A stretch of DNA of 64,000 nucleotides from Amoebidium appalachense (taxonomy: Eukaryota > Protista > Ichthyosporea), in the NCBI GenBank assembly GCA_963693365.1, contig CAVNZM010000004.1, positions 8,159,093 to 8,223,092 on the forward strand. The letters run 5' to 3'. The notes below the pieces were generated by a model. That model was not told the DNA's origin and made no database searches. It worked only from the letters and a program-made list of their open reading frames with translations. Below, piece after piece: positions 37,207-64,000 of the stretch. The position numbers were made by a program, and so were the translations under genes. How positions within the stretch are numbered: the stretch's first letter is position 1; each line of letters starts with the position of its first letter.

Positions 37207-39416
37207 ATGGTGTGCCTCGTTGGACTCGTCCTGGCCCTGTGGCTGGGCTTGGCCCAGGCCCAGACTTGCGGCCCAAATATAGTTAGAAAGATGATCCAGT
37301 TGGTTCCAAGCACAAATCCTCCCATAGAGCGTTGCTTGACCAGAGGAGAACTCATTAGCGGCGACACATACTCCGTTACACTCGGCTCTTGCAAGTAGGT
37401 GGCCGGTTGCCTGTTGTGTGCTCCACAAAAACACCTTTTTTTCTTGCGGGGCTTAGGGAAAGTCAGAAATGCATAAGTGAAAAGATGCAAGGATAGGATC
37501 AACATCACACGGTTCACATGTGGCACACACATTGTAAGCGGATCGTAAAAAGGTTGAATTAGATGGGAGGGAAAAGGGATCTGGGGAAGTTGTAGTGGGG
37601 TAATATAGCGTTACACGCTCCTTCATGGTGGTGGTGGTGTTGGCGGTGGTGTTAGTGTATATGTGAATGTGACTGAAGGAAAATGGGGCGTTAATGCAGG
37701 TTCTTAGTCTGTCCTCTGTTTTTTTGGATCTCCCCTCCCCCCCAACCCTCCCCCTCCCCCCTCCACTCTTTCCCCCCGTGCCCCTCAATGGCTGGTTTAA
37801 GTTTTTAAAGTTTTGAGCAAAAATCACCCGTTCAAATCACACCTACTACTTCTCTGTGTGGCTGACTAGCTGGTGTGGCTGGCAGAACCCCAAAAAATGC
37901 AGCCCTGATAGCTGGTTTCGATGACTAGGATTATTCTTCCCCGAGTGGGTTCTCCTTTTGCATTTATAGAACCAACTCCTGTGTTGCTTATGTTTACTTT
38001 TACTCACAATCTACCGTTGTTGAAGCCACTAATCTGAGTTCTGAGGGTTTTGTTCAAGCTAACGGGCCCTTCTTACCCAGGCCGAAGCGAAATGGTCTTG
38101 TCATCAAAGTAGCCATTGAGAACGGCTACTGGAAGACGAAAAATGGGCAGTGTCTAGGCCGTGTCCAGGACCAGCTTACACTTGGCCCATGTAATAGCGA
38201 GGCGAAGAAGTTTGTATGGGTGGCAAACACAGCCATCAGGGATCCAGGTTTGTCTCCCTAACCCCTTCTTCCACCCTCCAAAAAAGAAGAGTATTTTTAT
38301 CCCCTCTTCTTCCCCCCCCTCCCCCCTCCTCCCCCCTTCCCCCTTCCGCCCTGGGCTCCCCTTCCCCTCTGGGAGCTCAATAAAAATAACAATGATAAAT
38401 AGTGGAGGGAAAGGACGTAGAATGCCAGAAAGAAACTACCAAGTGACCCGTTCACACGTTTTTGGTCCCTTATTTTTGCGGGCTCTCCTTGACATTTCAG
38501 TTGTAATCATTGTTTAGTAACTTGTTGTTAGTACACGTTTCTTCAAGAGACTCTGTCTCGTACTCGTCTCACTACCTGTTATTTTCGGCTGTTGGTCACT
38601 GTGGGAGCACATAGCTAGGTCTTGAGCTCGGAAGGTTAACGTTGTAGAATTGAACAGTGTCAGTGTTGTTCATGGGTGGATGCGCAAGTTTGTCGTGCGC
38701 TTGGGTACTTGTATGAGTGGGATGGTGATGGTTGTAGGTATGTGTATGTGTGTGGTGCTTGTGGTTTTCTTGTGTGTGCGTGCTCTTGTACTTGCGTGCT
38801 GGACACATATTTGTTTCACCTTTTCATATCCGTCCTCTTGTTGGGGTGTACGTGAATGTGTTTGTGCACTCGGGAACGGGCATTCATGAGTGCATGTTTT
38901 TCGCTGTTACTTGGTGTGAAGCGTTTGACACAAGTGGATAACTGGTGGTTTGTCGTACATGTGATATATGTAAAGATGCAAACCTGCATGGGCCTGTGTT
39001 TTGTATGTGAGACGAGAGTGTTATGTCTCGTGTTTACCTGTATCTGTACATTCGTTTTTGGATGTGTATGTGGAGCTTTTGGTGCCTGCGCACACTGACA
39101 AGTTTTCTTTTGTGCCCATCTAAAAGAATTATAACTGTTATTGCGAAATTATGCCAAGGCTAATCACCCGGAGTGTTTTATTCTCCTCTTCCTTCCATCT
39201 TCTCTTGCCCGTAGTCATCTGTAGATTAAAAGCTTGTCCCATTCTCTACGTGCGCACACTCTGGTATGGAAAAAACATTTGAAAGTCTGAAACTTTGTGG
39301 CATATTGCACATGGTGTTCGTGTGGGTGCCAGTTAGCTATGCAGTTTTGTGGGATTCATCTGCGTTTTATGTGTGTTGTGCGGGCATTCGTGCACGCCTG
39401 CCTACCTCCCTTCGTG

Positions 39417-39479
<63 letters not shown>

Positions 39480-39944
39480 TGCCTGCCTGCACGACCTTTT
39501 TATGTAAATAAGTGCATGTGAATCGATATGCGGATAGTATGTGTGTGTTTATGAGTACTGGTTGTCTGCGTGTTGCTGCGTGTTGTTTACTTTAGTCTAT
39601 TGTATGAGACCTCTTCGTAGGCATTTGCTTGAGGTTAGAATTAATCTAGAACGGCATTTGAGGACGGCATGCTCATCCAGGGCCACATGCCCGGTGTCCT
39701 AGCAACAAATGTATGGAAATCTGGGTGTTGTACGGAAAACAATACCTGTGACGGCAATATGAGTGTGCTTGTTGAATGATTGAGGGTTTAGTGTGCGATT
39801 GCTACGTGCATGGGTGCGTGTGTGCTTTCGTCTGAGCATCAGCTTTTGTCATTGTACGAGTTTTTGTGTCGCTTGCCGTATACTCGCATGTACGTGTTTA
39901 TATACGTAGGTCGTGCGTGCGTGTGGGTCGGATGTCTGTGTGTG

Positions 39945-40003
<59 letters not shown>

Positions 40004-43000
40004 CGTGTGTGTGTGTTTGCTTGTGCGTGCGTGTGTGTGTGTGTAGCAACAGTTGTGTGCCTATGTGTGTTTGCCCTTTTTGCATGGGTGCTTCCTTACA
40101 CGGATAACGTATGTGATTGGAAGTGTCCTCAGTGTGTGTGTGCGCGCGAGTGTGTGCTGCTATGTGAGACACATACTTTTTACGTGCCTTTGTGATCCTT
40201 TCATAGGTTTCATGGTTATTCTTGGTTAAGTCAAGGTCATTCAAGCATGTGAGATGCAAGCTATGGTGTGATTTTTTTGTGAATGGCAGATGTGTGGTGC
40301 TGGAGGGTTTTCCACTTCTCTCTCCCTCTCATGCTTATATGCGCATGTACACGTCTTGCCTTCCATGCTCCCGTGCACACACACGTCTTGTCTCCCATGT
40401 ACTTCAGCCCAGTAAGAGTATCTGTGTTGGGAAACAGAGGTATCGTGTGTACTCGTGTTCGGAATATTTCAGTTCGTGCATGTGTTTGCTCTGTTGTTTT
40501 TCTGGTGGTGATGGTTTCCTTTCTCTTCCCGTTACACGTGCTTACTGTACCCCCCCCCCCCCCCCCCCCCCCTCTCCCCTAGTAGTTCCAGCCCTTTTTC
40601 AGCCCCCCCCCCCCCCCCCCCCCCCTCCCTCCCCCCTCCCCCTTTCCTCAAAACCTCCCCTGTCATGTTGCATTACAAACAGTCCATATGTGTATGTTCA
40701 TTGGTTGTGAGTGTGACGGTAACTTTAGAGCATTTTTAGGTATTTAGAGTTGCTAGGGTTGGCTCGTTTTACATGGGTCCGTGCCTGTGTGTCTTTTGCT
40801 AATCTGCATCACCGTGTTCGTTGGAAATGTGCACGTCGTACTCAGTAGCACACTCCTAACCCCCCGCCCCCCCCCCCCCCCCCCAAATAATAAAAAAGAA
40901 AAAAAAGAAAAGAAAAGAAACAATTCACACCCACACCCATCACCCCCATGACTTTGGTCTAGCATGTTATCCACTAAAAATGCAACCCCTCTTGCTTGCG
41001 CAACCCTGCTCGTCTTTGATCAAGACGGGTTGACCCACCCAAGTTCAGTTGATGCTGCTGTCTGAGTTGGAGGGTCGTATATACGTGGGCTAAGGGGTCG
41101 AAACTTAGACGCAATTGATGACTTGGGCCCTTCCTGAGGATGGGCTCTGCTTATGACGCATACTGTGCGCATGGCTGATGTTGCATACTTGAATGTTTGC
41201 CTTTGCATGTGTCCTGCACCATGCTTCTCATCGTGTATGCGTACTTCGTACTGTGTTCCGCATTGAAACCCCCCTCCTTGCCCTGTTTGCCTTTGCATGT
41301 GTCCTGCACCATGCTTCTCGTCGTGTATGCGTACTTTGTACCGTGTTCCGCATTCAAACCCCCCCCCCCCCCCCATACGCGGGCTAAGGGGTCGAAACTC
41401 AGACGCAATTGATGACTTGGGCCCTCCCTGAGGATGGGCTCTGCTTATGACGCATACTGTGCGCATGGCTGATGCTGCATACTTGAATGTTTGCCTTTGC
41501 ATGTGTCCTGCACCATGGCTTCTCATCGTGTATGCGTACTTCGTACTGTGTTCCGCATTCAAAACCCCCCCTGTCTTCTTTCAGAGGTGTCCTTTCAGGA
41601 CAGACCACTGTGTGGAGACATCTTTACTTCCATGCAACCGGGCATGGTTGCTCTGTGTCGTGCATCTGTAAGCACATACGCGTTTGTCGCTGCACTGCAT
41701 TAGTTTGCACATACATCTTCACCGTTTTGCTCACCTTGCTTGCATAAGCAACCCTGCTCGTCTTTGATCAAGACGGGTTGACCCACCCAAGTTCAGTTGA
41801 TGCTGCTGTCTGAGTTGGAGCGTCGTATATACGCGGGCTAAGGGGTCGAAACTCAGACGCAATTGATGACTTGGGCCCTCCCTGAGGATGGGCTCTGCTT
41901 ATGACGCATACTGTGCGCATGGCTGATGCTGCATACTTGAATGTTTGCCTTTGCATGTGTCCTGCACCATGCTTCTCATCGTGTATGCGTACTTCGTACT
42001 GTGTTCCGCATTCAAAACCCCCCCCCCCCCCCCGCCCCCCCCCCCCCGCCCCACACTCTTTGCATGGTGTTGTGGATGTCACAAATGCGTGTGAACGAGA
42101 ATGTGCAGCATTTCCTTTTCGTTAGAGTTTCCTTGCAGACTGACCAATACCCTTACAGCTGACAACACGTGCTTTGACTGGGACGAGTCGGAGCAGAAGG
42201 TGTTCCTCGACTCCTGCTCTGCTGTTGCGAAGGCGGCCAAGCCCAACACCAAGGCGGCGCTTACGCAAAAGTGGATGTGGTTTGCTGAGTGGATGGATTA
42301 CTTCAACACACACACGAACAACCCCATCATCCCGAACAGCGGGGGTTCCCGTCTGGATGGCTACACGATCCAGCAGTGTATGAAGGACTGCCTGTACAAC
42401 CCCAACTGCAACGCCTTCATGTGGGACGGCACCACGTGCAAGCACACGTCCGTCAACGGCACCTGCGAGCTCGTGTTCCACCAGCAGAATGATCCGTGGA
42501 TGATCTGTATTGCTGGTGACCGCCAGGACGGTGGGTGGTCCCAGTGGTCTGCCTGCTCCCGCACGTGCGGTGGTGGCCAGCGTACCCGCAAGTGCAACAA
42601 CCCGTGCGTTCACAACGGTGGTGAATGCTGCAAGGGGCCAAGCGCCGAGTCCTGTAACGCCCAGTCCTGCAGCCGCAACCCCGGAGAGACCTGCTCTGGT
42701 GGCTGCTGCAGTATGTCCCCCCCCCCCCCCCCCTCCCCCCCTTACGCCCTCCCCCCGGGGAGCTTCCTAGAAGCCCCGTCTCCTGAGTTCCTATCTATAT
42801 TTTTCTTGCTTCTGCTTACTGCTGCAACTTTAACCCCCGGCCTTTCCCACTGCCCTTGCCTGCATAAGCAACCCTGCTCGTCTCTGATCAAGACGGGTGA
42901 CCTACTCATGTTCAAGTGAAACAGTATCTGAGTTGGGTTTCGTTAACGAGGGGAATAGGTCGAAACTCGGGTACTGTGGATGACGTGGGCCCCCCCTGAG

Positions 43001-46000
43001 GATGGGCTCTGCTTATTATGCATACTCTTTATGTATGGCTTGCATTCTGCATCGTGTTATCCGTTTGTTCTTGTGTACTTCGTACTTTTTGACGCATTCA
43101 AAACCCCCCTCCCCCTTACTTCCCCCCCCCCCCCCCCCCCCCCCCCCGCCCCTCCTTCCCCTCCAGCAACCCCCTCAGCACAGAGAGCACTCGCATACGT
43201 TCTCCCCTCCCTCCCTCCCCCCTCCCCCCCTCCCCCCCCCCCGCCCGCCCGCCCGCAAACATACACAATGCTCAAATTCTAACTTTAATACTTCCAGTCC
43301 ATCTTTTCACCCTTTACGATGTGCAGGGTTTTGGATTTCCTTTTAGAAAGTAGTTGTTTATGCACAATTGTACGATTCATCATGCTACCGTCCATTCTCT
43401 TTGTTATTTATCAGTGCCGGTCTGGGTGCAATTTTGTTTCATGCTGCTCTTTGACAGTCTTGTCCTGAAGAATGATGGGGTACTGAACCTGTGTGAACAT
43501 TTTCTGATCGCATTCAATGCACATTTCAGAGTACAAGCTGGTGCCCAAGGCCGATGTCAAGTCTTCCCTTGGCGGTGGCGAGGTGCTGCCGCTGGAGACC
43601 TGCAAGGCCCGCTGCACCAAGATGAAGGGGTGCAACGGTTTTTCGTGGGATGGTCGTCGGTGCTGGTACAAGAGCGTCACCACTAAGGGCGCCATCGTTC
43701 CTTCATCCACCACGAGCCTGTACCTGCAGGACTGCCCGGCCGGCACCTGGTCTGCATGGGGTGCATGCTCCGTCACATGCGGCAACGGCGGTATCCGCAA
43801 GCGCACCTGCCCAACCAACAACTGCATTGGCGCCGCGCAGGAGGCATGTGGTGCGGGTCCATGCTGCACGTTCCGCCTCAATGCCAAAAAGGACGTTCCC
43901 CTCAAGACCATCCCCGGTGGTGGCAAGATGGCCCTGAACGAGTGTATGCGCAGATGCGCGGCCAATGCCAAGTGCAACTCGTTCGTGTGGGACGGGTCCA
44001 CCTGTATCATGAAGGCCATGTCCAGCTTGGCCGACATGGTGCCCAGCACCGTGTGGTCGACCTACACTGCCTCCTGCCGTGTCATCCCCACCACCTCCGT
44101 CCCGGTCAACGGCAAGTGGGCGGAGTGGGGTGTTTGCAGCACCTCTTGCGGCGGCGGTACCCGCTCTCGCACGTGCACCAACCCCCCACCTTCGAACGGC
44201 GGCTCGCAGTGCGCTGGGGCTGCCACTGAGACGTGCAACACCCTCCAGTGCTGTACCTACCGTCTTTTCCCGGCCAAGGATGCCACCCAGGATATGGCCG
44301 GTGGCGGAGCAATGACTCTGAACGAGTGCAAGGCCAACTGCCGTGCCACCACAGGTTGCACAGCTTTTGCCTTCAGCGGCTCTGCGTGCCTGTTTAAGGC
44401 CCTGCCCGTACCCGTCAAGGACCCCAACACCGATCTTGTTCCCTCTGCCACCTACGACATGTATGTTCAGGACTGCTTCAGCGGCCGCACCAACGGGAAC
44501 TGGGGTTCATGGAGCATGTGCAGTGTCAGCTGCAACGGCGGCATCAAGACACGCGAGTGCAACAACCCTGCCCCGGCCGGTGGTGGAGCCACATGCAGTG
44601 GTTCAGCCTCTGCCAGCTGCAACACTGGGGTATGTGTGCACTGGGAGGTCTACCCCAAGAAGGAGACCCACGTCATCACGATTCCCGGGGGTGGCTACAT
44701 GACTATTGACGAGTGCAAGGCGGCGTGCGTTGCCACCCCCACCTGCACGGCATTCACCCACAACGGACAGTACTGCAACCTCAAGGCTGTCACCAACGCC
44801 ACCACGGAGGTGGTTGACGACAGTGAAGAGTGGGACACGTACGTCATCAACGGCGAGGATTCTCTTCTGCCAGCGGGCACCCCCATGTGGACTGCCTGGA
44901 GTGCGTGCAGTGTCACGTGCAGCATTGGCGTCAAATCGCGCCTGTGCGTGGAGGCTGTTACTGGCAAGCCATCGAGTGCCTGTGTCGGTGACAACGCTGC
45001 TCCTTGTGATGCTGGTCCATGCTGCAGTACGTACCCCCCCCCCCCCCCCCCCTTCCCCCCTCCCTTCTATCTCCCCCCCCCTTATCTGCCCCTGTTTCCT
45101 TCGAAGGGCTCCACCTCTTTAACTTACATACTTGACCCTTTTTGCTTCTACCTATATATGCCTTGCACCCCAGCAAGCTCTACTCTGGCTCAGTTTGAGT
45201 CCATTCATTGGCTCACTTATTATTCTAAAAATTCAGGGCTCGTTTTGCAGTCGACATTGTGTTTCCTGTCTTGAATGTGTACTTTGTAGTCTACTGTATC
45301 CCCCTTCCGTCCCTCCCTCCCCCCTCCCCCTTCCCCCCCCCTCGCCCCTCTCCGCCTCCCCCCCCTGTTTTCTTTCCCAGTTCCCCCCTCCATCTTCTCT
45401 GTTGCTCGTGTACCGGCCTCGTGGTGAAAGAGAACTTGTTTGGTTGCATATGTTGCACCTCTAATTCAAACAAATGATAACACAACCATTCCCTTTAGCA
45501 TTCGACAAGGTGTCGGGTGAGGTTGCCGGCATGGACACCGGTGGTGGTGGGTGGTATGATGCCGGCTGGACCATTGCCAAGTGCAAGCAGGTGTGCGCAG
45601 GGACTCCCAACTGCTATGCCTTCACCGACACTGGCAAGGGCTGCTGGTTCAAGAACATTCCGTCCGACAGCGCAGTGACGCCCCACAGCACATTCTTCAC
45701 TTACATTGAGCGATGCCCTAAGTCTGGATGGTCTGCTTGGGGCGAATGCTCGAAGAACTGCGGTGGTGGTACCCAAAACCGAACGTGCCCCCAGGGCTCC
45801 ACATGCTCAGGGAGCAACACACAGGCTTGCAACACTCAGCCCTGTTGCCGTAAGCATCCCCCCCCCCCCCCCCCCCTCCCCCCCTTCCCTGCCCATCTGC
45901 CTTATCCAAACACTCTTCGCCCCCCAACCCTACTTCCCTCGCTTTTTGAACAATCTAGATGCAACCGTCAGCCCTGTTGTAGTAGCCCCCTATATACGCG

Positions 46001-46181
46001 GGCTAAGGGGTCGAAACTCAGACGCAATTGATGACTTGGGCCCTCCCTGAGGATGGGCTCTGCTTATGACGCATACTGTGCGCATGGCTGATGTTGCACA
46101 CTTGAATGTTTGCCTTTGCATGTGTCCTGCACCATGCTTCTCATCGTGTATGCGTACTTCGTACTGTGTTCCGCATTCAAG

Positions 46182-46214
<33 letters not shown>

Positions 46215-46747: not shown

Positions 46748-46782
<35 letters not shown>

Positions 46783-47338
46783 TTCCCTTCATCTTTGTCC
46801 CCAAGGTTGCAAAACCTGCTAGACCAATTCACCCCACATGGTCTTCCTTGCCCCCCCCCCCCCCCCCCCCCCCTTTTTTTTTGGGCTCACCTCTTGGCTT
46901 CTGTGCTAACGTAACCAATGCCCTCTCTGCAGCATACAAGGAGTTTACCATTAGCGACACTCTCTGGGATGTTGTTGGCCAGGCCAACAGCATTGTCGAG
47001 TGCGAGAGCCTTTGCGATGCCACCACTGGTTGCAATGCATTCATCTTCAATGTGGCATATTCTGTGTGCCAGCTGAAGCGTGTGCGTGATTCTGGCCAGA
47101 TTGTTTCTTCTGCGGAAGGGTGGAGCGTGTTTGTCCGGCAGTGCCCTGGCACTGTGATCGACGGCGCCTGGGGCAACTGGGGTCAATGCACTGCCACATG
47201 CAAGGGAGGTGTGCGCACACGTGCATGCAACAACCCAGCTCCCGACAATGCCGGTGCACCTTGCGATGGTGAATTCATTCAGACATGCAACGATGGTGTT
47301 GACTGTGCTCCCGGCACCGTTGTGGATAATGGTAGCCT

Positions 47339-47372: not shown

Positions 47373-50300
47373 TCCCACATTCCCCCCTCCCCCCCCCAAA
47401 ATAAAAAAAATAAGGGAGCTGTCTTCTTCCTGATGTCTTGCGCTACAGGATTGCAACTAGGTTATTCCCTGGGCTATTTTGTGCAGCCCTTTGTGATCCT
47501 GCATGTTCAGCTTCTTGCTCTTTCCCGCTTCTCTCCTCCATGCTTCTGTTTATGCTGAATGTGTGGCATGCAGTTTCTTCTCTCCAGTGACTCTGACCAT
47601 TCTGCACCTTCTTTTTACTGATCTACCGTCGATGGCACGCTCGAACACCTCAGAGTTACGTTTCTTTTGGTTCATGCTCATCTCCTCCCTCGCACCCCAC
47701 TAACTTTACTCTCTTGTTGCAGCCGAGATTGGCGAGCTCGTGTATTTCGATGTCAACGGCAACGGTGTCAAGGATGTCGGCGAGGTTGGCATTGGTGGCG
47801 CTAAGGTGGTGCTCAAGGATGTCAATGGCCAGGTAGTTGTTTCCACCACCACCAACTCCAACGGTGTCTACCGGTTCTATGCCCTACCTGCCGGCACCTA
47901 CACGGTCGAGGTTGAGACTGCCGCTGGCATCCTCCAGGGGCTCAGCAACACCAAGGATATTGATGGCAACCTTGACTCTAAGGCCACTGTCACCGTCACG
48001 GCCGGCCAGCAGAAGCTGGATGTGGACTTCGGGTACACTGACATCAAGGACTGCACCACGGGCTCGGTCACGTGCCCGGCCCAGGCCATGTGCGTCAACT
48101 CTGCTGGTGGGTACGTCTGTGCCTGCAACACTGGCTACACGATGGTCAGTGGCAGCTGCACGGCCAAGACTGGCAGCATCGGTGACAGCATCTGGCTTGA
48201 TGCCAACCGCAACGGCATCCAGGACGCTAAGGAGGTGGGCATGGTTGCCATTTTGGAGCTCTATGCCGTCGACATTGCTGCCGTCAACTCCCGCTTGCTC
48301 GCGCCACTCACTGCATCGGGTACTGGTAGGCGGCGCCGCGCTGCATCCAATGTCACGGCGGTAGCAGCCACCACACTGCTCAAGTCCATCACCACTGATG
48401 GATCGGGTTTCTACCTGTTCCATAACATTACCCCTGGTGCCTACCGTGTCAAGATTGTTTCATCCAGCATTCCCAGCGGCCTTGTGCAGACCTACGACCC
48501 CGATGGCCAGAAAGATGGCCAGACTGTGGTTATCATCGGGCCCGGTGACCACCTGCGCGGTATTGACTTCGGTTATGCCATCTCAGTGCCCGGCACGGTG
48601 GAGGGCACAGTATATGACGACGTGAACAAGGATGGCATGAAGGACAATGGTGATGTTCCCGTGGGGGATGTTATTCTTGACCTCGTGGACATTGCCACGG
48701 GCAAGGTTTTGGCCACAACCCGGACTAATGGCACCGGTGTTTACCGCTTCAGCCGTGTACCGGCTGGCACGTACCAGATCCGTCTGCAGAAGGGCACCCT
48801 GCCGGCACCCTACCAAGGTGTCATCTACGAGAAGGACGGCACCCTTGACGGGGCTATTGCTTTTGTGATGCCTGATGGTGGCCAGCTGACCGGCTACTAC
48901 TTCGGACTCACCACCATCTCGATCGGTTCTGTCACGGGCACCATCTTTGTTGACAACAACCAGAACACTGCCCAAGATTCGGGTGAGGAGGGCCTTGCTA
49001 GCATCAAGATCAACATTCTGGATTCGGTTACTGGAAACGTTGTGGCCACCACAACCACCGATTCCAATGGCAATTTCCAACTGGACGGCATCCCAGTTGG
49101 CAACTACACTTTTGCCATTGACCTTACTAGTCTCCCGCCAGGCGTAGAGGTTTCCACTCCGCCCAACGGCCAGATGTCGTTGGAGGTGACCCCGAGTGGC
49201 AACTCCCCGATATTTGTCGGCCTGCTGGCTCCTCCTCCTGGTTCTGTGGAAGGCAAGGTCTACCGCGACATCAACCGTAACAAGGCAGAGGAGAATGGCG
49301 AGGAGGGCATTGCTGGTGTCATCGTTCAGATTGTCAACCCTGCCACCAGCACCGTTCTTAAGCAGGTGATGACCGACGTTGACGGGGTGTACATCTTCAC
49401 TAACGTGCTTCCTGGTGGCTGGATCATTGTCATCCAGCGGGGGGAGAATTTGCCCAACGATTGGCGCCAGTATGCTGATCCCGACGGCACAGCAGACGGC
49501 CGCACCACCGTAACGGTTGTTTCCAACGAGGTTAGCGACGGTAACATCTTTGGCTACAACATGCAACCCCTGCCAGGCAAGATCATGGGCTCAGTCCTCA
49601 ACGATACCACTGTTGTCAGCCGCAAGATCCCGGGCCAGCCGCCAATTCCTGATGTCACCCTGAATTTGATCAACACGGCAACCCTTGCCGTTGTGGACAC
49701 CACCACCACGGGTGCAGATGGTTCATACCAGTTCGTCAATGTACCTGCGGGCTCATATCGGGTCAAGATTGACAAGGCAACCCTGCCAGTGAACCACTTC
49801 CCGACTTCCGATCCCGATAGTGTCCTGGATCACCAGACCAGGGTGACAATTCTGGACGCAGACACTCGCGCCAATGTTGATTTCCTCTACTTCCACTCAG
49901 CGGATGGAAGCGGCAGAATGCTGCCAGGCCATGTGACCCGGCCACCAGGTCGCGCCAACGGCACGCTGGCCAACATTACTGTGCTCATCACCAATGCCGA
50001 TACTGGTGTGGTCTTCCCAGTCAATACTGATGAGGACGGCCAGTACATTTTCCCGCCCATGCCCCCATGCCGCAATTGCAGCATCCAGGTTGTGCCGGAA
50101 ACTCTGCCGGAGGACACCAGTTTGGTCCAGACTGCATCCAACGGTACCGACACCTCAGTTGTTGGCATTCTTCCGGGTGACCACACAATTTACTTCTCGG
50201 TTCCGGAGAATGTAACCAAATTTGTGCCACAGACCATTGTCATTGATACATTCCACGGCAGTGTGTCAGGTGTTGTCGTTGAGGATACCGATGTTGATGG

Positions 50301-53300: not shown

Positions 53301-56300
53301 CTTCATCAATCTTGCTACTGGTTCTGTAACCATCAGAGTCGACAACGGCACCCTCCCGGTGGACTCCGTCCTTACACACGACTATGATGGGGTTGCCGAT
53401 GGGCAGACATCATTTGCCCTCATGGATGGGTCCGAGAAGTTGGACATCAAGTTCGGCTATGCCTCCAAGGATGCACTGGCAAAGGGTACGGTCGAGGTGG
53501 TGGTCGTCAGAGACGTCAATCGTGATGCTGCCTATGACAACACCACGGACATACTCATTTCGTCGGCAGTCGTCTCCCTGCAAGTGGCCGGAGCAAATGG
53601 CGTTTGGACCACCGTGCGCAATGGCACCACTGATGCGTTGGGCCGTGTTCAGTTTACTGAGCTCGAGCCAGGCACTTATCGGGTTGTGCTCGATAATACC
53701 ACAACTGGCGACGCTAAGATCAACGTGTTTGATGGAGACAAGGTGGTTGACGGCGCATCATACTTCAACATCACCAAGGCTGAGAGGTACTCAGTCGTCA
53801 TGGGGGTGCGTGTGCCCTATCCAGGTACCGTTGCTGGTCTTCTCTTCAACGACACTGACAAGAACCTGGTGAAGGACCCAAGTGACCAGCCCTTGGCCAA
53901 CGTCACTGTGCAGCTGGTTGACCCTGCCGGCAATGTCATTGCAACAACCACCACTGATGCCAACGGCAATTATGTGTTCACCGACATCCCAGAAGGCGAA
54001 TACTCTGTGCGGGTAGTGCCCGCTACCTTGCCACCAACCAGCGTCCCGGCTATCATCACCAATGGGGCTAAGCCTGCTAAGGTCGATCCTCTGGGCTTTA
54101 ACGAGGTGCATCTCACGGTGGGTGCTGATGCTACGGCCAACCACATTGTCAACATAACGGGCTTTGTTTTTGAGGATGTTGACAAAGACGGCACGTTAGA
54201 CGTCACTGACAAACCGATCACCAACACTAAGGTGGTGCTGTTGAGCACAGGTGGTGTCCAAATTGCCACCACCAACACTGACCCGTTTGGTCGGTTTTTC
54301 TTTGATGTTGCAACTCCTGGCACCTACACAGTGCAGGTTGTTAGCAACACCCTGCCATCGGCTCTGAATGTGGTGAGCTATGACCCAGACACCAAGCTGG
54401 ATGGTTCAAGCCAGGTAGTTGTTTCGGGCACGACACCATCGTCGTGGTTGTATTTCGGCTACCATCAGACCACAAACACCTTTGTCATCACATTGGTGAA
54501 TGACACAAACACAAATGGTGTCAAAGACCAGACAGACCCTCCCTTGGCCAACGTAACCATTCAAATTGTTGATCAGAACGGGAATGTCGTAGCCAATGCA
54601 ACAACGGACTCAACGGGCAAGGTTGTTATCCCTAATCTCCCATCTAGCAACTACACGGCTATCATTCCTGCATTGCCCACCAACAGTAAGCCCATTGCCA
54701 CCGCACCAACCACAGCAGGAAACACGACCGAATACCCTATTGGTCCTGATGGCACCATTGGAACGGTCGTGTGCAACACCACTACATGTGCCCTGCCTCC
54801 CCCCACCATTGCAGCTTCCGGAAACAGTGGCACTGGAGAGCCCCTGATAGGCCGCATCGGCAACGACATCAATGGTGACGGTTCCATAGGCCCGAACGAG
54901 GGTCTAGGTGGTGTAGTCGTCCAGTTAGTTGACCCGACCGGCAAGGTGATTGCTGAAACAACCACACTGCCAAACGGCACATTCGTGTTCCCGGATGTCC
55001 CCTCAGGTAACTACACCTTTGCGGTTAAACCCGATGGTATACCTAGCAACACAACCCGGCCAGTGGTGGAGCTTCCTGCTGCGGGGAACACAACTGCTAC
55101 GACAGGAATTCCAGCCAATGGAAATGTCCCAGGAACCATCGGATGTCCCGCAAACCAGACCTGCTTGTACACACCAGTGGCGCCACTACCCAAGCTCAAT
55201 GTTACTGGCGAGATCTTCAGTGATTCCGACAAGGATGGCGTGCGTGATCTGACGGAGCCCGGCCTTGGCAACGTGACGGTGCAGCTGTTGGATTCCACCG
55301 GCAAGGTTGTCGGCCAAACACAGACATTGTCCAACGGGTCGTTTGCCTTCCCCGATGTGCCTGTAGGTAACTACAGCATTCGTGTTGTCCCCGAGACACT
55401 GCCCAGCGGTGCGCAGACCCCGTCTGCTTACCTGCCCGGCGAGGGTGGGAACAAGACGGTTGTTCCGGTTGAGCCCAATGGCGCCATTTTGGGCAGCGAG
55501 GTGTGCACGGAGGCATCTGGCTGCCTGTACGTCCCGCCACCAGTGCCACCGACCCCTGTTGTTGGGTCCATCATTGGCGGTCTGCTGAACGATACCAACG
55601 GCGACGGTCTGAAGGACGCCAACGACACCGGCCTGGGCAATGTCACTGTTCAGCTTGTGGCCCCCAACGGCACGGTAGTTGCCGAGGTGCAGACGCTGCC
55701 CAACGGCGCATTCATCATCCCGCCGATCAACTGCGTGGACTGCACCATCCGGGTGGTTCCCGAGACGCTGCCCAACAACACCAACCCCATTGCCGAGGTG
55801 CCTCTTGGTAATGGCACTGGCATTGTGGGTGTGCCTCCCAATGGCACGCTGCCTGTTGATGTTGACTGCAACGGCACTGCCTGCACGTTCACTTCAGCGA
55901 CTCCGCCGTCGCTGCCAGATATCTCCGGCGCGATCTTCAATGACGCCAACAAGGATGGAGTGCGCGACCCCACGGACCCTGTCCTGGGCAACGTGACTGT
56001 GCAGCTTGTGGACGCCAATGGCACGGTTGTTGGCGAGACACAGACACTGCCCAACGGCACGTTTGTGTTCCCCGACGTGCCTCCTGGCAACTACAGCATC
56101 CGTGTGGTGCCGGAGACGCTGCCCAGCAATGCGCAGGCCCCGTCAGCCAACCTGCCCAGTGATGGTGGCAACAGCACGGTGGTTCCCATTCAGCCGAGCG
56201 GCGCCATCTCGGGAACTGAGGTTTGCACTGAGGCGTCTGGCTGCCTGTACGTCCCGGCGCCAGTGCCATCAACCCCTGTTGTTGGGCCCATCATTGGCGG

Positions 56301-59300
56301 TCTGCTGAACGATACCAACGGCGACGGTCTGAAGGACGCCAACGACACCGGCCTGGGCAACGTCACTGTTCAGCTGGTGGCTCCCAACGGCACGGTGGTT
56401 GCCGAGGTGCAGACGCAGCCCAACGGCGCGTTCATCATCCCGCCGATCAACTGCGCGGACTGCACCATCCGGGTTGTTCCCGAGACGCTGCCCAACAACA
56501 CCAACCCCATTGCCGAGGTGCCTTTTGGCAATGGCACTGGCATTGTGGATGTGCCTTCCAATGGCACGCTGCCTGTTGATGTTGACTGCAACGGCACTGC
56601 CTGCACGTCCACCCCAGTGACTCCGCCGTCGCTGCCAGATATCACCGGCGCGATCTTCAATGACGCCAACAAGGATGGAGTGCGCGACCCCACGGACCCT
56701 GTCCTGGGCAACGTGACTGTGCAGCTGGTGGACGCCAATGGCACGGTTGTTGGCGAGACACAGACACTGCCCAACGGCACGTTTGTGTTCCCCGACGTGC
56801 CTCCTGGCAACTACAGCATCCGTGTGGTGCCGGAGACGCTGCCCAGCAATGCGCAGGCCCCGTCAGCCAACCTGCCCAGTGATGGTGGCAACAGCACGGT
56901 GGTTCCCATTCAGCCGAGCGGCGCCATCTCGGGAACTGAGGTTTGCACTGAGGCGTCTGGCTGCCTGTACGTCCCGGCGCCAGTGCCATCAACCCCTGTT
57001 GTTGGGCCCATCATTGGCGGTCTGCTGAACGATACCAACGGCGACGGTCTGAAGGACGCCAACGACACCGGCCTGGGCAACGTCACTGTTCAGCTGGTGG
57101 CTCCCAACGGCACGGTGGTTGCCGAGGTGCAGACGCAGCCCAACGGCGCGTTCATCATCCCGCCGATCAACTGCGCGGACTGCACCATCCGGGTTGTTCC
57201 CGAGACGCTGCCCAACAACACCAACCCCATTGCCGAGGTGCCTTTTGGCAATGGCACTGGCATTGTGGATGTGCCTTCCAATGGCACGCTGCCTGTTGAT
57301 GTTGACTGCAACGGCACTGCCTGCACGTCCACCCCAGTGACTCCGCCGTCGCTGCCAGATATCACCGGCGCGATCTTCAATGACGCCAACAAGGATGGAG
57401 TGCGCGACCCCACGGACCCTGTCCTGGGCAACGTGACTGTGCAGCTGGTGGACGCCAATGGCACGGTTGTTGGCGAGACACAGACACTGCCCAACGGCAC
57501 GTTTGTGTTCCCCGACATGCCCCCTGGCAACTACAGCGTCCGTGTGGTGCCGGAGACGCTGCCCAGCAATGCGCAGGCCCCGTCAGCCAACCTGCCCAGT
57601 GATGGTGGCAACAGCACGGTGGTTCCCATTCAGCCCAGCGGCGCCATCTCGGGAACTGAGGTTTGCACTGAGGCGTCTGGCTGCCTGTACGTCCCGGCGC
57701 CAGTGCCATCAACCCCTGTTGTTGGGCCCATCATTGGCGGTCTGCTGAACGATACCAACGGCGACGGTCTGAAGGACGCCAACGACACCGGCCTGGGCAA
57801 CGTCACTGTTCAGCTGGTGGCCCCCAACGGCACGGTGGTTGCCGAAGTGCAGACGCAGCCCAACGGCGCGTTCATCATCCCGCCGATCAACTGCGCGGAC
57901 TGCACCATCCGGGTTGTTCCCGAGACGCTGCCCAACAACACCAACCCCATTGCCGAGGTGCCTTTTGGCAATGGCACTGGCATTGTGGATGTGCCTCCCA
58001 ATGGCACGCTGCCTGTTGATGTGGACTGCAACGGCACTGCCTGCACGTCCACTCCAGCGACTCCGCCCTCGCTGCCAGATATCACCGGCGCGATCTTCAA
58101 TGACGCCAACAAGGATGGAGTGCGCGACCCCACGGACCCTGTCCTGGGCAACGTGACTGTGCAGCTGGTGGACGCCAATGGCACGGTTGTTGGCGAGACA
58201 CAGACACTGCCCAACGGCACGTTTGTGTTCCCCGACATGCCCCCTGGCAACTACAGCGTCCGTGTGGTGCCGGAGACGCTGCCCAGCAATGCGCAGGCCC
58301 CGTCAGCCAACCTGCCCAGTGATGGTGGCAACAGCACGGTGGTTCCCATTCAGCCCAGCGGCGCCATCTCGGGAACTGAGGTTTGCACTGAGGCGTCTGG
58401 CTGCCTGTACGTCCCGGCGCCAGTGCCATCAACCCCTGTTGTTGGGCCCATCATTGGCGGTCTGCTGAACGATACCAACGGCGACGGTCTGAAGGACGCC
58501 AACGACACCGGCCTGGGCAACGTCACTGTTCAGCTGGTGGCTCCCAACGGCACGGTGGTTGCCGAGGTGCAGACGCAGCCCAACGGCGCGTTCATCATCC
58601 CGCCGATCAACTGCGCGGACTGCACCATCCGGGTTGTTCCCGAGACGCTGCCCAACAACACCAACCCCATTGCCGAGGTGCCTTTTGGCAATGGCACTGG
58701 CATTGTGGATGTGCCTTCCAATGGCACGCTGCCTGTTGATGTTGACTGCAACGGCACTGCCTGCACGTCCACCCCAGTGACTCCGCCGTCGCTGCCAGAT
58801 ATCACCGGCGCGATCTTCAATGACGCCAACAAGGATGGAGTGCGCGACCCCACGGACCCTGTCCTGGGCAACGTGACTGTGCAGCTGGTGGACGCCAATG
58901 GCACGGTTGTTGGCGAGACACAGACACTGCCCAACGGCACGTTTGTGTTCCCCGACATGCCCCCTGGCAACTACAGCGTCCGTGTGGTGCCGGAGACGCT
59001 GCCCAGCAATGCGCAGGCCCCGTCAGCCAACCTGCCCAGTGATGGTGGCAACAGCACGGTGGTTCCCATTCAGCCCAGCGGCGCCATCTCGGGAACTGAG
59101 GTTTGCACTGAGGCGTCTGGCTGCCTGTACGTCCCGGCGCCAGTGCCATCAACCCCTGTTGTTGGGCCCATCATTGGCGGTCTGCTGAACGATACCAACG
59201 GCGACGGTCTGAAGGACGCCAACGACACCGGCCTGGGCAACGTCACTGTTCAGCTGGTGGCCCCCAACGGCACGGTGGTTGCCGAGGTGCAGACGCAGCC

Positions 59301-62300
59301 CAACGGCGCGTTCATCATCCCGCCGATCAACTGCACGGACTGCACCATCCGGGTTGTTCCCGAGACGCTGCCCAACAACACCAACCCCATTGCCGAGGTG
59401 CCTTTTGGCAATGGCACTGGCATTGTGGATGTGCCTCCCAATGGCACGCTGCCTGTTGATGTGGACTGCAACGGCACTGCCTGCACGTCCACTCCAGCGA
59501 CTCCGCCCTCGCTGCCAGATATCACCGGCGCGATCTTCAATGACGCCAACAAGGATGGAGTGCGCGACCCCACGGACCCTGTCCTGGGCAACGTGACTGT
59601 GCAGCTGGTGGACGCCAATGGCACGGTTGTTGGCGAGACACAGACACTGCCCAACGGCACGTTTGTGTTCCCCGACATGCCCCCTGGCAACTACAGCGTC
59701 CGTGTGGTGCCGGAGACGCTGCCCAGCAATGCGCAGGCCCCGTCAGCCAACCTGCCCAGTGATGGTGGCAACAGCACGGTGGTTCCCATTCAGCCCAGCG
59801 GCGCCATCTCGGGAACTGAGGTTTGCACTGAGGCGTCTGGCTGCCTGTACGTCCCGGCGCCAGTGCCATCAACCCCTGTTGTTGGGCCCATCATTGGCGG
59901 TCTGCTGAACGATACCAACGGCGACGGTCTGAAGGACGCCAACGACACCGGCCTGGGCAACGTCACTGTTCAGCTGGTGGCTCCCAACGGCACGGTGGTT
60001 GCCGAGGTGCAGACGCAGCCCAACGGCGCGTTCATCATCCCGCCGATCAACTGCGCGGACTGCACCATCCGGGTTGTTCCCGAGACGCTGCCCAACAACA
60101 CCAACCCCATTGCCGAGGTGCCTTTTGGCAATGGCACTGGCATTGTGGATGTGCCTCCCAATGGCACGCTGCCTGTTGATGTTGACTGCAACGGCACTGC
60201 CTGCACGTCCACTCCAGTGACTCCGCCGTCGCTGCCAGATATCACCGGCGCGATCTTCAATGACGCCAACAAGGATGGAGTGCGCGACCCCACGGACCCT
60301 GTCCTGGGCAACGTGACTGTGCAGCTGGTGGACGCCAATGGCACGGTTGTTGGCGAGACACAGACACTGCCCAACGGCACGTTTGTGTTCCCCGATGTGC
60401 CCCCTGGCAACTACAGCGTCCGTGTGGTGCCGGAGACGCTGCCCAGCAATGCGCAGGCCCCGTCAGCCAACCTGCCCAGTGATGGTGGCAACAGCACGGT
60501 GGTTCCCATTCAGCCCAGCGGCGCCATCTCGGGAACAGAGGTTTGCACTGAGGCGTCTGGCTGCCTGTACGTCCCGGCGCCAGTGCCATCAACCCCTGTT
60601 GTTGGGCCCATCATTGGCGGTCTGCTGAACGATACCAACGGTGACGGGCTGAAGGACGCCAACGACACCGGCCTGGGCAACGTCACTGTTCAGCTGGTGG
60701 CCCCCAACGGCACGGTGGTTGCCGAGGTGCAGACACAGCCCAATGGCGCGTTCATCATCCCGCCGATCAACTGCACGGACTGCACCATCCGGGTTGTTCC
60801 CGAGACGCTGCCCAACAACACCAACCCCATTGCCGAGATGCCTCTTGGCAATGTCACTGGCATTGTGGATGTGCCTCCCAATGGCACGCTGCCTGTTGAT
60901 GTTGACTGCAACGGCACTGCCTGCACGTTCACTCCAGCGACTCCGCCGTCGCTGCCAGATATCTCCGGCGCGATCTTCAATGACGCCAACAAGGATGGAG
61001 TGCGCGACCCCACGGACCCTGTCCTGGGCAACGTGACTGTGCAGCTTGTGGACGCCAATGGCACGGTTGTTGGCGAGACACAGACACTGCCCAACGGCAC
61101 GTTTGTGTTCCCCGACGTGCCCCCTGGCAACTACAGCGTCCGTGTGGTGCCGGAGACGCTGCCCAGCAATGCGCAGGCCCCGTCAGCCAACCTGCCCAGT
61201 GATGGTGGCAACAGCACGGTGGTTCCCATTCAGCCGAGCGGCGCCATCTCGGGAACTGAGGTTTGCACTGAGGCGTCTGGCTGCCTGTACGTCCCGGCGC
61301 CAGTGCCATCAACCCCTGTTGTTGGGCCCATCATTGGCGGTCTGCTGAACGATACCAACGGCGACGGTCTGAAGGACGCCAACGACACCGGCCTGGGCAA
61401 CGTCACTGTTCAGCTGGTGGCTCCCAACGGCACGGTGGTTGCCGAGGTGCAGACGCAGCCCAACGGCGCGTTCATCATCCCGCCGATCAACTGCGCGGAC
61501 TGCACCATCCGGGTTGTTCCCGAGACGCTGCCCAACAACACCAACCCCATTGCCGAGGTGCCTTTTGGCAATGGCACTGGCATTGTGGATGTGCCTTCCA
61601 ATGGCACGCTGCCTGTTGATGTTGACTGCAACGGCACTGCCTGCACGTCCACCCCAGTGACTCCGCCGTCGCTGCCAGATATCACCGGCGCGATCTTCAA
61701 TGACGCCAACAAGGATGGAGTGCGCGACCCCACGGACCCTGTCCTGGGCAACGTGACTGTGCAGCTGGTGGACGCCAATGGCACGGTTGTTGGCGAGACA
61801 CAGACACTGCCCAACGGCACGTTTGTGTTCCCCGACCTGCCCCCTGGCAACTACAGCATCCGTGTGGTGCCGGAGACGCTGCCCAGCAATGCGCAGGCCC
61901 CGTCAGCCAACCTGCCCAGTGATGGTGGCAACAGCACGGTGGTTCCCATTCAGCCGAGCGGCGCCATCTCGGGAACTGAGGTTTGCACTGAGGCGTCTGG
62001 CTGCCTGTACGTCCCGGCGCCAGTGCCATCAACCCCTGTTGTTGGGCCCATCATTGGCGGTCTGCTGAACGATACCAACGGCGACGGTCTGAAGGACGCC
62101 AACGACACCGGCCTGGGCAACGTCACTGTTCAGCTGGTGGCTCCCAACGGCACGGTGGTTGCCGAGGTGCAGACGCAGCCCAACGGCGCGTTCATCATCC
62201 CGCCGATCAACTGCACGGACTGCACCATCCGGGTTGTTCCCGAGACGCTGCCCAACAACACCAACCCCATTGCCGAGGTGCCTTTTGGCAATGGCACTGG

Positions 62301-64000
62301 CATTGTGGATGTGCCTTCCAATGGCACGCTGCCTGTTGATGTTGACTGCAACGGCACTGCCTGCACGTCCACCCCAGTGACTCCGCCGTCGCTGCCAGAT
62401 ATCTCCGGCGCGATCTTCAATGACGCCAACAAGGATGGAGTGCGCGACCCCACGGACCCTGTCCTGGGCAACGTGACTGTGCAGCTTGTGGACGCCAATG
62501 GCACGGTTGTTGGCGAGACACAGACACTGCCCAACGGCACGTTTGTGTTCCCCGACGTGCCTCCTGGCAACTACAGCGTCCGTGTGGTGCCGGAGACGCT
62601 GCCCAGCAATGCGCAGGCCCCGTCAGCCAACCTGCCCAGTGATGGTGGCAACAGCACGGTGGTTCCCATTCAGCCGAGCGGCGCCATCTCGGGAACTGAG
62701 GTTTGCACTGAGGCGTCTGGCTGCCTGTACGTCCCGGCGCCAGTGCCATCAACCCCTGTTGTTGGGCCCATCATTGGCGGTCTGCTGAACGATACCAACG
62801 GCGACGGTCTGAAGGACGCCAACGACACCGGCCTGGGCAACGTCACTGTTCAGCTGGTGGCTCCCAACGGCACGGTGGTTGCCGAGGTGCAGACGCAGCC
62901 CAACGGCGCGTTCATCATCCCGCCGATCAACTGCGCGGACTGCACCATCCGGGTTGTTCCCGAGACGCTGCCCAACAACACCAACCCCATTGCCGAGGTG
63001 CCTTTTGGCAATGGCACTGGCATTGTGGATGTGCCTTCCAATGGCACGCTGCCTGTTGATGTTGACTGCAACGGCACTGCCTGCACGTCCACCCCAGTGA
63101 CTCCGCCGTCGCTGCCAGATATCACCGGCGCGATCTTCAATGACGCCAACAAGGATGGAGTGCGCGACCCCACGGACCCTGTCCTGGGCAACGTGACTGT
63201 GCAGCTGGTGGACGCCAATGGCACGGTTGTTGGCGAGACACAGACACTGCCCAACGGCACGTTTGTGTTCCCCGACCTGCCTCCTGGCAACTACAGCATC
63301 CGTGTGGTGCCGGAGACGCTGCCCAGCAATGCGCAGGCCCCGTCAGCCAACCTGCCCAGTGATGGTGGCAACAGCACGGTGGTTCCCATTCAGCCGAGCG
63401 GCGCCATCTCGGGAACTGAGGTTTGCACTGAGGCGTCTGGCTGCCTGTACGTCCCGGCGCCAGTGCCATCAACCCCTGTTGTTGGGCCCATCATTGGCGG
63501 TCTGCTGAACGATACCAACGGCGACGGTCTGAAGGACGCCAACGACACCGGCCTGGGCAACGTCACTGTTCAGCTGGTGGCTCCCAACGGCACGGTGGTT
63601 GCCGAGGTGCAGACGCAGCCCAACGGCGCGTTCATCATCCCGCCGATCAACTGCGCGGACTGCACCATCCGGGTTGTTCCCGAGACGCTGCCCAACAACA
63701 CCAACCCCATTGCCGAGGTGCCTTTTGGCAATGGCACTGGCATTGTGGATGTGCCTTCCAATGGCACGCTGCCTGTTGATGTTGACTGCAACGGCACTGC
63801 CTGCACGTCCACCCCAGTGACTCCGCCGTCGCTGCCAGATATCTCCGGCGCGATCTTCAATGACGCCAACAAGGATGGAGTGCGCGACCCCACGGACCCT
63901 GTCCTGGGCAACGTGACTGTGCAGCTTGTGGACGCCAATGGCACGGTTGTTGGCGAGACACAGACACTGCCCAACGGCACGTTTGTGTTCCCCGACGTGC
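37207..64000 (+). CDS. Giant secreted modular adhesin-like protein (>=6,490 aa, 3'-incomplete). Predicted exons: 37207-37394, 37870-37914 (least certain), 38081-38247, 42159-42710, 43530-45026, 45499-45849, 46933-47331, 47723->64000
   Basis: Signal peptide MVCLVGLVLALWLGLAQA; all junctions GT..AG with matching phases; ricin-B-like CL..LTLGPC repeats, PAN/Apple (C-x3-C-x5-C-x2-F) and TSP1 (WSxWSxCSxTCGGG.R.RxC) modules, then SdrD-B-like repeats; GC3-rich codons. Confidence 0.85.
39414..39490. repeat. (CCTG)n tetranucleotide microsatellite, intronic
   Basis: Direct reading. Confidence 0.95.
39938..40044. repeat. (GT)n microsatellite, intronic
   Basis: Direct reading. Confidence 0.95.
40991..42017 (+). 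repeat. Cluster of four copies of a ~280-nt structured intronic element (40991-41268 full, 41284-41358 and 41375-41564 5'-truncated, 41735-42017 full)
   Basis: Near-identical sequence; common 3' end CGCATTC(A)n (CGCATTG in the first copy) followed by a C-run. Confidence 0.9.
42159..47331 (+). CDS. Exons 4-7: end of ricin-like region plus seven alternating PAN/Apple-TSP1 module pairs
   Basis: Visible in ORFs 42101..42919, 43517..45274, 45474..46031 and 46848..47558, e.g. QQCMKDCLYNPNCNAFMW followed by DGGWSQWSACSRTCGGGQRTRKC. Confidence 0.9.
42855..43103 (+). repeat. Diverged full copy of the structured intronic element
   Basis: Shares GCATAAGCAACCCTGCTCGTCT, GGTCGAAACTC, CCCTGAGGATGGGCTCTGCTTAT, GTACTTCGTAC and the 3' end CGCATTCAAAA+C-run. 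Confidence 0.88.
45991..46180 (+). repeat. 5'-truncated copy of the structured intronic element
   Basis: Matches 41827-42015; C-runs on both sides. Confidence 0.9.
46321..46494 (+). repeat. Two copies of a ~73-bp intronic module separated and flanked by poly-C
   Basis: CTTGCTTTTCAAACAATCT...TCAACAGAT at ~46321-46393 and ~46420-46494. Confidence 0.85.
47723..64000 (+). CDS. Exon 8 (>=16,278 bp, open): about 46 SdrD-B-like/Cna-B-type domains with one Ca-binding EGF (~48040-48160)
   Basis: Translation starts AEIGELVYFDVNGNGVKDVGEVGIGGAKVVLKDVNGQVVVSTTTNSNGVYRFYALPAGTYTV...VDFGY, and the motif recurs every ~105-120 aa; EGF DIKDCTTGSVTCPAQAMCVNSAGGYVCACNTGY. Absent from the ORF track, consistent with no stop in the window. 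Confidence 0.92.
55561..64000 (+). repeat. Coding tandem array, 720-bp unit (240 aa, two SdrD-B-like domains), >=11.7 copies; more diverged precursors from ~54480
   Basis: Units start at 55561, 56281, 57001 ... 63481 and differ only by scattered substitutions. Confidence 0.98.

Follow-up and report, generated by a model that had tools for sequence, protein, structure and literature searches.

The described systems closest to the gene treated here include the staphylococcal Sdr proteins, which carry few B domains, and the colossins of dictyostelids, whose name reportedly goes back to the 2005 Dictyostelium genome paper. In bacteria the B domains are stabilised by calcium and connect the tip adhesin with the cell, and in the B1 domain of SdrG it is the Ca3 site, with its two Asp residues in the first and the last strand, that matters most for strength, its loss lowering the unfolding force by an order of magnitude (PMC6232131). 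Colossin A has been listed as a bacterial horizontal transfer and described as a structural slug protein of Cna_B repeats (PMC3188802), and dictyostelids of group 2 have an enlarged colossin family (PMC4334915). Together with the diatom Trailins, colossin A provides a precedent for a bacterial domain in a eukaryotic extracellular protein. The eukaryotic matches of isopeptide domains have been treated as likely false positives or contamination (PMC12617251). The present work concerns a gene of the ichthyosporean Amoebidium appalachense, which lies in a stretch of 64,000 nucleotides (the window) of contig CAVNZM010000004.1 (assembly GCA_963693365.1, positions 8,159,093 to 8,223,092 of the forward strand; the coordinates below are those of the window) and joins, in one spliced reading frame, a lectin-like/PAN/TSP1 head to a stalk of bacterial-type SdrD-B domains.

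Contigs from four public runs were compared with positions 36900-56000 of the window, and the evidence on splicing is that of contigs, not of single molecules. Seven exons and six GT-AG introns, all on the plus strand, give a joined frame of 6,477 codons without a stop up to the window end; as a control, moving one acceptor by 2 nt brought 203 stops into this frame. Exon 1 (37038..37394) holds the 5' leader, the ATG at 37207, the hydrophobic signal-like residues 1-20 and the first of three ricin-B-like subrepeats, the contigs starting at 37038 (run X9) and 37078 (run X10). The second subrepeat lies in exon 2 (38081..38247), which is represented by spliced contigs, and the third in exon 3 (42159..42710), together with the first PAN+TSP1 unit. 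Units 2-5 follow in exon 4 (43530..45026; Pfam PAN_1 E 4.9e-20, TSP_1 E 3.7e-15), unit 6 in exon 5 (45499..45849) and unit 7 in exon 6 (46933..47331), from which a phase-1 intron leads to the stalk in exon 7 (47723..64000), intronless over at least 16.3 kb and running past the window end.

GT..AG joints were found in the contig comparison at 37394-38081, 38244-42156 (cut +3) and 45026-45499, the last of them in both X9 and X10. Contig 9 of X10 (10,753 nt, study P4) and contig 19 of X9 (10,966 nt, study P3) each align in six ordered pieces to exons 1-4, 6 and 7; an unlisted gap in the X10 contig corresponds exactly to exon 5 (351 nt), and the six-intron model fits the X10 coordinates to the base. 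The pieces on exons 6 and 7 are consecutive on both contigs with hundreds of bases on each side, and the stretch 47722-55365 of exon 7 is covered without a gap by X9 contigs. The DNA-type run X1 retains the introns, and one of its contigs (47417-55365) spans intron 6 into exon 7. Since the contigs of X9 and X10 skip GT-AG introns which X1 keeps, these two runs are read as RNA-derived; the run types are not on record as RNA, X10 and X14 having been guessed to be RNA and X9 to be DNA. A retrocopy would formally account for the intron-free contigs of X9 and X10 as well.

The gene is real, and a single spliced message contains both its head and its stalk. A reading made earlier from the sequence only had proposed eight exons, with the head spliced to one long intronless exon of at least 16.3 kb at a joint between exons 7 and 8. 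The splice was confirmed by contigs from two studies, and the intronless exon by a frame (frame 0) free of stops from 47704 to the window end (5,432 codons); the exon count had to be corrected to seven, the junction being that of exons 6 and 7. When the contigs were checked for a head exon left unspliced to the stalk exon, the two were found joined. Introns 3-6 are all of phase 1 and located at module ends, a pattern that exon shuffling would leave.

The head begins with the sole hydrophobic window above 1.6 in the 6,477-residue model (residues 1-20), which by hydropathy is a predicted signal peptide. Residues 21-160 form three Cys/Trp subrepeats, about one per exon. Against a hidden Markov model (HMM) of 22 natural ricin-B domains this region scored 12.7 bits, a value reached by none of the 980 scored shuffles (best 9.1; reversed sequence 0.8), and with hhalign the probability was only 10%. 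Pfam gave a weak hint of a lectin-like region in exon 2 (CysR_MRC2_N, E 0.051) and no Ricin_B match when the exons were scanned singly; the internal repeats of the region were not significant, and a PDB sequence search with exon 2 returned no useful match. Assignment to the ricin-B-type lectins is above chance and weakly suggested. The remainder of the head consists of seven WxxWxxC TSP1 repeats and seven PAN-type CxxxC..C modules, with Pfam TSP_1/PAN matches in exons 3-6. Thus, of the head described by the sequence-only reading, the seven PAN and seven TSP1 modules hold by Pfam and by motif, whereas the ricin-like part is weak and the signal peptide a matter of hydropathy. In the BLAST list of the head SCO-spondin-like proteins are abundant (23-38% identity), and most of the 120 listed matches are TSP1 proteins without PAN families. 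The matches in the ESM Atlas, all below 0.9 and to be taken as leads only, were bacterial SdrD_B clusters in the case of the stalk and, in that of the head, clusters of nematode TSP1 and PAN proteins.

Exon 7 encodes 47 SdrD-B-like domains, of which 46 are complete and the last is truncated at the window end. Its first 2,087 residues match Pfam SdrD_B with E 7.9e-203, and the PF17210 profile gives 661 and 261 bits against a curated cut-off of 29.7. Previously about 46 domains had been described as having both the calcium-binding loop and the TT-type core; the number of complete domains is the same and the T-x-x-x-G-x-Y/F-x-F core is present in 45 of the 47, but the strict D-x-N/D-x-N/D-G loop (Ca1) in 32 only. 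Domain 1 (47728..48039), which matches a B repeat of SdrD from S. aureus (domain E 4.9e-10), has retained its Ca1 loop as well as a Ca3 pair in the form Glu/Asp. It is followed, at the very place described before for an EGF, by a calcium-binding one (48040..48168; Pfam EGF_CA E 6.4e-9, above the cut-off) and then by domain 2 (48169..48591), in which a loop insertion of ~30 residues carries four arginines at 48328-48339; the insertion was seen in an alignment (A1) that is partly out of register, half of its rows being aligned by the second domain. The divergent domains 3-23 (48592..55563) precede a young tandem array (55564..64000), in which a 720-bp unit that encodes two SdrD-B domains (117+123 residues) recurs 11.7 times and so accounts for domains 24-47; the 11 full copies differ at 0-22 of the 720 bases, and two of the units are identical to two others.

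By sequence the stalk domain matches 10ps (E 5.9e-16). An AlphaFold2 (AF2) model of one array unit, built on a 24-row alignment, had a predicted local distance difference test value (pLDDT) of 79, the last 16 residues being below 50. When this model was compared with 48,161 chains, SdrD B domains were the best matches (10ps with Z 10.4; 4jdz with Z 10.1 and a root-mean-square deviation of 2.9 over 97 residues), and the top match by Foldseek was again 10ps (E 6.7e-9); domains 1-4 folded without an alignment reached a pLDDT of 37.7. The identification of the stalk domain as SdrD-B is supported by its sequence and by its predicted fold. No Ser-Asp tract was found in the window.

The ligand positions of the repeat were compared with those of its bacterial counterparts, the Ca3 pair being taken as the Asp after the first-strand Gly plus the last-strand Asp, as in the Ca3KO construct (PMC6232131). 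Both ligands were present in 90 of the 93 domains of five Thermoanaerobaculia-like proteins, with a possible undercount where a domain is shortened. In the array, cysteine pairs occur in the last-strand region, and in the AF2 unit model both cysteines of the first domain are on a hairpin (strands 101-105 and 109-113), a placement from which we infer a disulfide between them. In one array unit 13 of the 22 Asn residues are in sequons (shuffle mean 2.5); the corresponding share is 22% on average and 28% at most in the 120 listed stalk matches, and the divergent stalk, with 28%, stays inside this range. The extreme Ca3-dependent strength of the staphylococcal B domains has probably been lost in most of the stalk domains, and in the young array it has probably been replaced by disulfide-stapled, N-glycosylated ends. 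The calcium-stiffened stalk proposed before is thus retained for the Ca1-type loop (32/47), but the Ca3 pair is lost in 44 of the 46 domains.

The reading we prefer is that of a spliced eukaryotic gene with a lectin-like/PAN/TSP1 head on an SdrD-B stalk, the product of which is likely secreted and likely serves as a long surface tether; we put its probability at about 0.52. The leader would route the protein through the endoplasmic reticulum, the beta-sandwich rod would hold the head clear of the cell wall, and the lectin with the seven PAN+TSP1 units would be an avid binder of glycans or proteins on a substrate, a host or an adjacent cell. The Ca1-type loops, with calcium bound, would contribute to the folding and the stiffness of the rod, which near its base is likely disulfide-stapled and glycosylated, and, as a weaker suggestion, the RRRR loop in domain 2 may allow a furin/kexin-type protease to release the head. 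The position of the head at the tip of the stalk copies the layout of the bacterial B-repeat adhesins.

A number of results weigh against such a tether and should be considered together. The lectin assignment is weak, the strict Ca1 loop is degenerate in 15 of the domains and both Ca3 ligands are kept in only two of the 46, in one of them as Glu/Asp. By hydropathy no transmembrane or glycosylphosphatidylinositol segment is found in the window, the C-terminus lying beyond it. The two relatives from Ichthyophonus hoferi have no TSP1 or PAN head and rank only 162nd and 201st of 261 proteins by mean domain score, and the nearest precedent with a name, colossin A, has been described as a structural slug protein, not as an adhesin (PMC3188802). 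A single eukaryotic origin of the stalk domain is allowed by the approximately unbiased (AU) test (p 0.225), and run X1 has three one-base deletions in coding exons.

In the main rival reading, which we hold to be unlikely on balance, the protein would form a fibre with a structural role in the cell wall or the extracellular matrix, like that supposed for colossin A; the head would cross-link it to wall glycans or to other copies of the protein and would have no part in fixing the cell to its surroundings. Very long, glycosylated, disulfide-bearing repeats would fit such a fibre, as would the absence of a membrane anchor within the window and the dictyostelid and I. hoferi relatives that have no such head. 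The anchor may, however, lie past the window, and seven PAN+TSP1 units with a lectin-like tip copy the layout of the bacterial B-repeat adhesins (PMC6232131).

The length of the putative tether depends on the size of the array. The depth of near-identical contigs of the repeat unit was compared with that of the unique stalk, and was 2,818 vs 35.9 in X2 and 898-991 vs 8.87 in X3, both DNA-type runs, ~280 vs 10.2 in X11, 581 vs 16.2 in X9 and 164 vs ~4 in X14. Contig depth is not copy number and copies of the repeat could sit in paralogues, so the 27-112 units and 10,000-30,500 residues to which these values would correspond are a hint only. Unit contigs of greater divergence had two to four times the depth of the unique stalk, which suggests either additional downstream units or paralogues. 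An SdrD-B domain is 4.5-5 nm long, which would give a rod of at least ~200 nm, and possibly of 350-1,200 nm. Contigs matching the stalk were also observed to diverge at loose ends, at 49709 and 54606 in X10 and X14 and at 55207-55530, 55932 and 57008 in X2, X3 and X11; these are either paralogous SdrD-B genes or further units past the window, and a search of the loose ends for the terminus yielded only more SdrD-B-like units and no C-terminus. In X16, a run with another organism label, only the repeat is matched, by three short contigs, and nothing on range follows from this.

For the origin of the stalk domain, a word-based search with domains 1-19 gave 1,027 matches; in the 120 that were listed the identity was 25-33% and every named one is bacterial. 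A HMMER search with the repeat unit against 1.84 billion representatives gave 12,342 matches, among the best 150 of which none exceeds 43% identity; the top match is a protein of 7,796 residues from Cavenderia fasciculata (P0241), at ~32%. Thirty hand-picked proteins were looked up and eight proved eukaryotic: four named dictyostelid ones (two of them called colossin A), one EukProt protein grouping with these, one from the fungus Hyaloraphidium curvatum and two from I. hoferi. The Hyaloraphidium protein (P0332) has 16 near-identical SdrD-B repeats and nests among bacterial rows of the tree, possibly as a separate transfer.

The phylogeny of the repeats, which the sequence-only reading had named as a check, was inferred with a mixture model from 101 rows and 106 columns and is poorly resolved (9 of 98 branches starred). 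In this tree the rows of the window and of I. hoferi stand among many bacterial rows and are parted from 13 of the 15 dictyostelid rows by a branch with a Shimodaira-Hasegawa approximate likelihood ratio test (SH-aLRT) value of 92, but they do not form one side of a branch. AU tests under LG+G4 were carried out on 49 rows, the 52 rows dropped being near-copies, six rows on long branches and surplus rows of single proteins, and rejected none of the four groupings (window alone, p 0.44; window + I. hoferi, 0.47; window + dictyostelids, 0.18; all eukaryotes, 0.225), so neither one nor several eukaryotic origins are rejected; constraining all eukaryotes together costs 17.4 log units and window + I. 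hoferi 1.7. A bacterial origin is the simplest reading of the distribution, one or several transfers both fitting the tree, and the stalk domain was likely taken from bacteria long ago. The earlier claim of a horizontally acquired and domesticated stalk agrees with the bacterial best matches and with the position of the gene among long terminal repeat (LTR) retrotransposons; it is drawn from the distribution, the tree is neutral and colossin A is a precedent.

It is improbable that SdrD-B is old in eukaryotes, or entered once before the split of Amoebozoa and opisthokonts, and was lost in most lineages. SdrD-B giants in dictyostelids, Hyaloraphidium and I. hoferi, and the AU value for the all-eukaryote clade, would fit such a history, but the SH-aLRT 92 branch, the nesting of Hyaloraphidium among bacterial rows, the cost of 17.4 against 1.7 log units, the intron-free 16-kb exon in an intron-bearing gene and the listing of colossin as a bacterial transfer (PMC3188802) speak against it. 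A more comprehensive scenario, which combines several of the above points and which we consider doubtful as a whole, would be that a stalk domain of bacterial adhesins was acquired by ichthyosporeans, which are relatives of animals, and was combined through exon shuffling with EGF_CA, TSP1, PAN and lectin modules. With the loss of Ca3 and the gain of disulfides and N-glycans it would have been remodelled into a family of attachment fibres, of which the present member, lengthened by a 720-bp array that is still growing, could be one extracellular chain of 10,000-30,000 residues, up to ~1 micrometre long and with a head that a protease could release.

The four arginines in the insertion of domain 2 are the only RRRR or R-x-K/R-R site in the 6,477 residues and may be regarded as a candidate convertase site. 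The head might then be a shed lectin or decoy cut at RRRR, the stalk being mainly a glycosylated spacer or protective coat. The presence of a single polybasic site, in a loop insertion directly behind the head, and the sequon-rich array would suit this reading, yet a cut in a beta-sandwich loop need not part the chains, and neither the two I. hoferi proteins nor three colossins have an R-x-K/R-R site; we consider it improbable.

In the unique part of exon 7 the window differs from the other runs at 21 sites (19 from the comparison of 36900-56000 and two from a second contig comparison), of which 11 are synonymous and 10 non-synonymous, with no stops. The ratio of non-synonymous to synonymous polymorphism (pN/pS) between runs is ~0.3 (0.285 with one exon-4 site included), a value that also holds for the divergent domains 3-23. 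The three deletions of X1 all sit in G or C runs, where X9 and X10 are gap-free. That the fusion is an artefact of bacterial contamination, mis-assembly or a dead gene, as the bacterial look of the stalk, the near-identical and partly identical units prone to mis-assembly and the three deletions of one run might suggest, is very improbable and already largely refuted by the X1 DNA contig linking intron 6 with exon 7, the spliced contigs of two studies across the head-stalk junction, the intact frame with its pN/pS, and a depth that hints at an under-counted rather than an inflated array.

The DNA of the window is eukaryotic, and its first 35 kb carry frames of copia-type and chromodomain-gypsy LTR retrotransposons. 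Ten of the 20 flanking frames had a match in a Pfam scan, all of retroelement type. A copia-type element (gag, integrase and reverse transcriptase in three overlapping frames) lies at 14182-18765 on the plus strand and seems to have split a gypsy-type element of the minus strand; one peptide begins both at 14182 (+) and at 2667 (-), and further stretches are repeated at 12683/22003 and at 6680/9745/21179. The chromodomain gypsy retrotransposon (gag, protease, reverse transcriptase, RNase H, integrase and chromodomain, in long frames) occupies 27741-34590 (+). The open frames 11445-12617 (-), 22560-23614 (-) and 25488-26802 (+), of 120-270 codons, gave no Pfam match at E 0.001. Within the gene, long poly-C tracts are found in every intron (37395-47722), often directly behind the donor, and an element of 80-280 bp occurs six times in introns 2, 3 and 5 (40990-41570, 41741-42020, 42861-43026, 45991-46180), its copies being 81-99% identical. 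The summed contig depth of this element is up to 10^4-10^5 in run X1, and it is likely a high-copy non-autonomous repeat of the genome.

The combination of head and stalk was looked for among the proteins retrieved. Of the 261 fetched stalk matches none matches the head, and only the two I. hoferi proteins contain an EGF. SdrD-B was found in none of the 120 listed head matches, and in none of the 514 fetched proteins do SdrD-B and TSP1 occur together, which, at the top of crowded searches, is weak evidence of absence. Our own PAN HMM matched none of the 514, even those with Pfam PAN, and was too narrow, so only the TSP1 and SdrD-B results count. A query with the SdrD-B/EGF_CA region of I. hoferi, aimed at shorter proteins, gave none with both PF17210 and PF07645 in the best 120 of 201 matches, read by eye. 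The literature covered, which excludes most subscription papers, contains nothing on this architecture or on ichthyosporean SdrD-B proteins, and the main text of PMC5560861 has no mention of SdrD, Cna or thrombospondin. The earlier statement that the architecture was not recognised from any named gene stands as far as this head on this stalk is concerned; for a giant bacterial-type stalk colossin A is a named precedent.

The closest comparison in the ichthyosporeans is with two I. hoferi proteins, Ihof_evm1s1092 (P0299) and Ihof_evm4s89 (P0265), in which SdrD_B is interleaved with EGF_CA (25+19 and 22+2 Pfam stretches, respectively). P0299 alternates the two domains ~19 times, and P0265 ends in a non-repeat region. 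P0299 can be aligned in register to the D1-EGF-D2 part of the window protein (39% over 176 residues with three gap positions), and of the signs of common descent with I. hoferi this in-register EGF junction is the strongest. The SdrD-B/EGF_CA fusion is hence not unique to the gene, being shared with I. hoferi, and was probably inherited within a lineage. The I. hoferi models differ in having no PAN/TSP1 or lectin head and no R-x-K/R-R site; a young Cys-rich tandem unit is not seen among the closest matches, and their domains are not the closest by score.

The dictyostelid colossins (P0241 of C. fasciculata and P0271 of Heterostelium album) are, like the present gene, eukaryotic giants of dozens of SdrD-B/Cna-B repeats, but no TSP1, PAN or EGF was found in the fetched ones and, unlike the window protein, the three checked have no R-x-K/R-R site. 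The giants P0124 and P0505 (the latter from the P0252 cluster) of the Thermoanaerobaculia (Acidobacteriota) have among the highest mean domain similarities of the 261 fetched proteins and the same D-x-D-G..D-F-G-Y end, but differ in keeping the Ca3 pair (90/93); they were chosen as best matches, so donor status does not follow. The apicomplexan micronemal adhesins carry apple/PAN (MIC4) or TSP1 (TRAP/MIC2) modules, and TRAP/MIC2 has a vWA domain, a transmembrane helix and a cytoplasmic tail. With these and with the animal SCO-spondin-like proteins the head has its PAN/TSP1 modules in common, SdrD-B being absent from the 120 listed head matches; no vWA was found in the Pfam scan of the exons and no transmembrane segment in the window. 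The diatom Trailins are eukaryotic adhesives with a bacteria-derived CAA domain, another domain in another lineage, and serve as an analogy only.

The staphylococcal Sdr MSCRAMMs (SdrD, and the B repeats of SdrG; PF17210) resemble the stalk in sequence, predicted fold, Ca1-type loop (32/47) and tip-on-stalk layout. In place of the N2N3 A region the window protein has the PAN/TSP1 head, encoded by intron-bearing sequence, and no SD repeats, and its stalk differs in having at least 46 domains, a Ca3 pair in two of 46, and added cysteine pairs and sequons; the end of the chain, where an Sdr protein has its LPXTG wall anchor, lies past the window. The gene may thus work like a colossin or an Sdr-type stalk, by analogy, which does not imply membership of the family of either. 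Colossin and the Trailins are precedents for the general idea and the giant bacterial-repeat stalk was already known; what appears to be new is that such a stalk bears a lectin/PAN/TSP1 head and that its repeat is remodelled. It is thus verified that one eukaryotic gene unites a stalk domain of bacterial type with an animal-style extracellular toolkit. The gene also points to an undescribed family of such giants shared with I. hoferi, a close relative of animals, and provides a definite candidate for a fibre of attachment or of the wall. Domains 1-2, which keep Ca3, and the array unit, which has lost it and gained cysteines, stand in one chain, where the remodelling of one of the strongest folds measured could be followed directly in a eukaryote.

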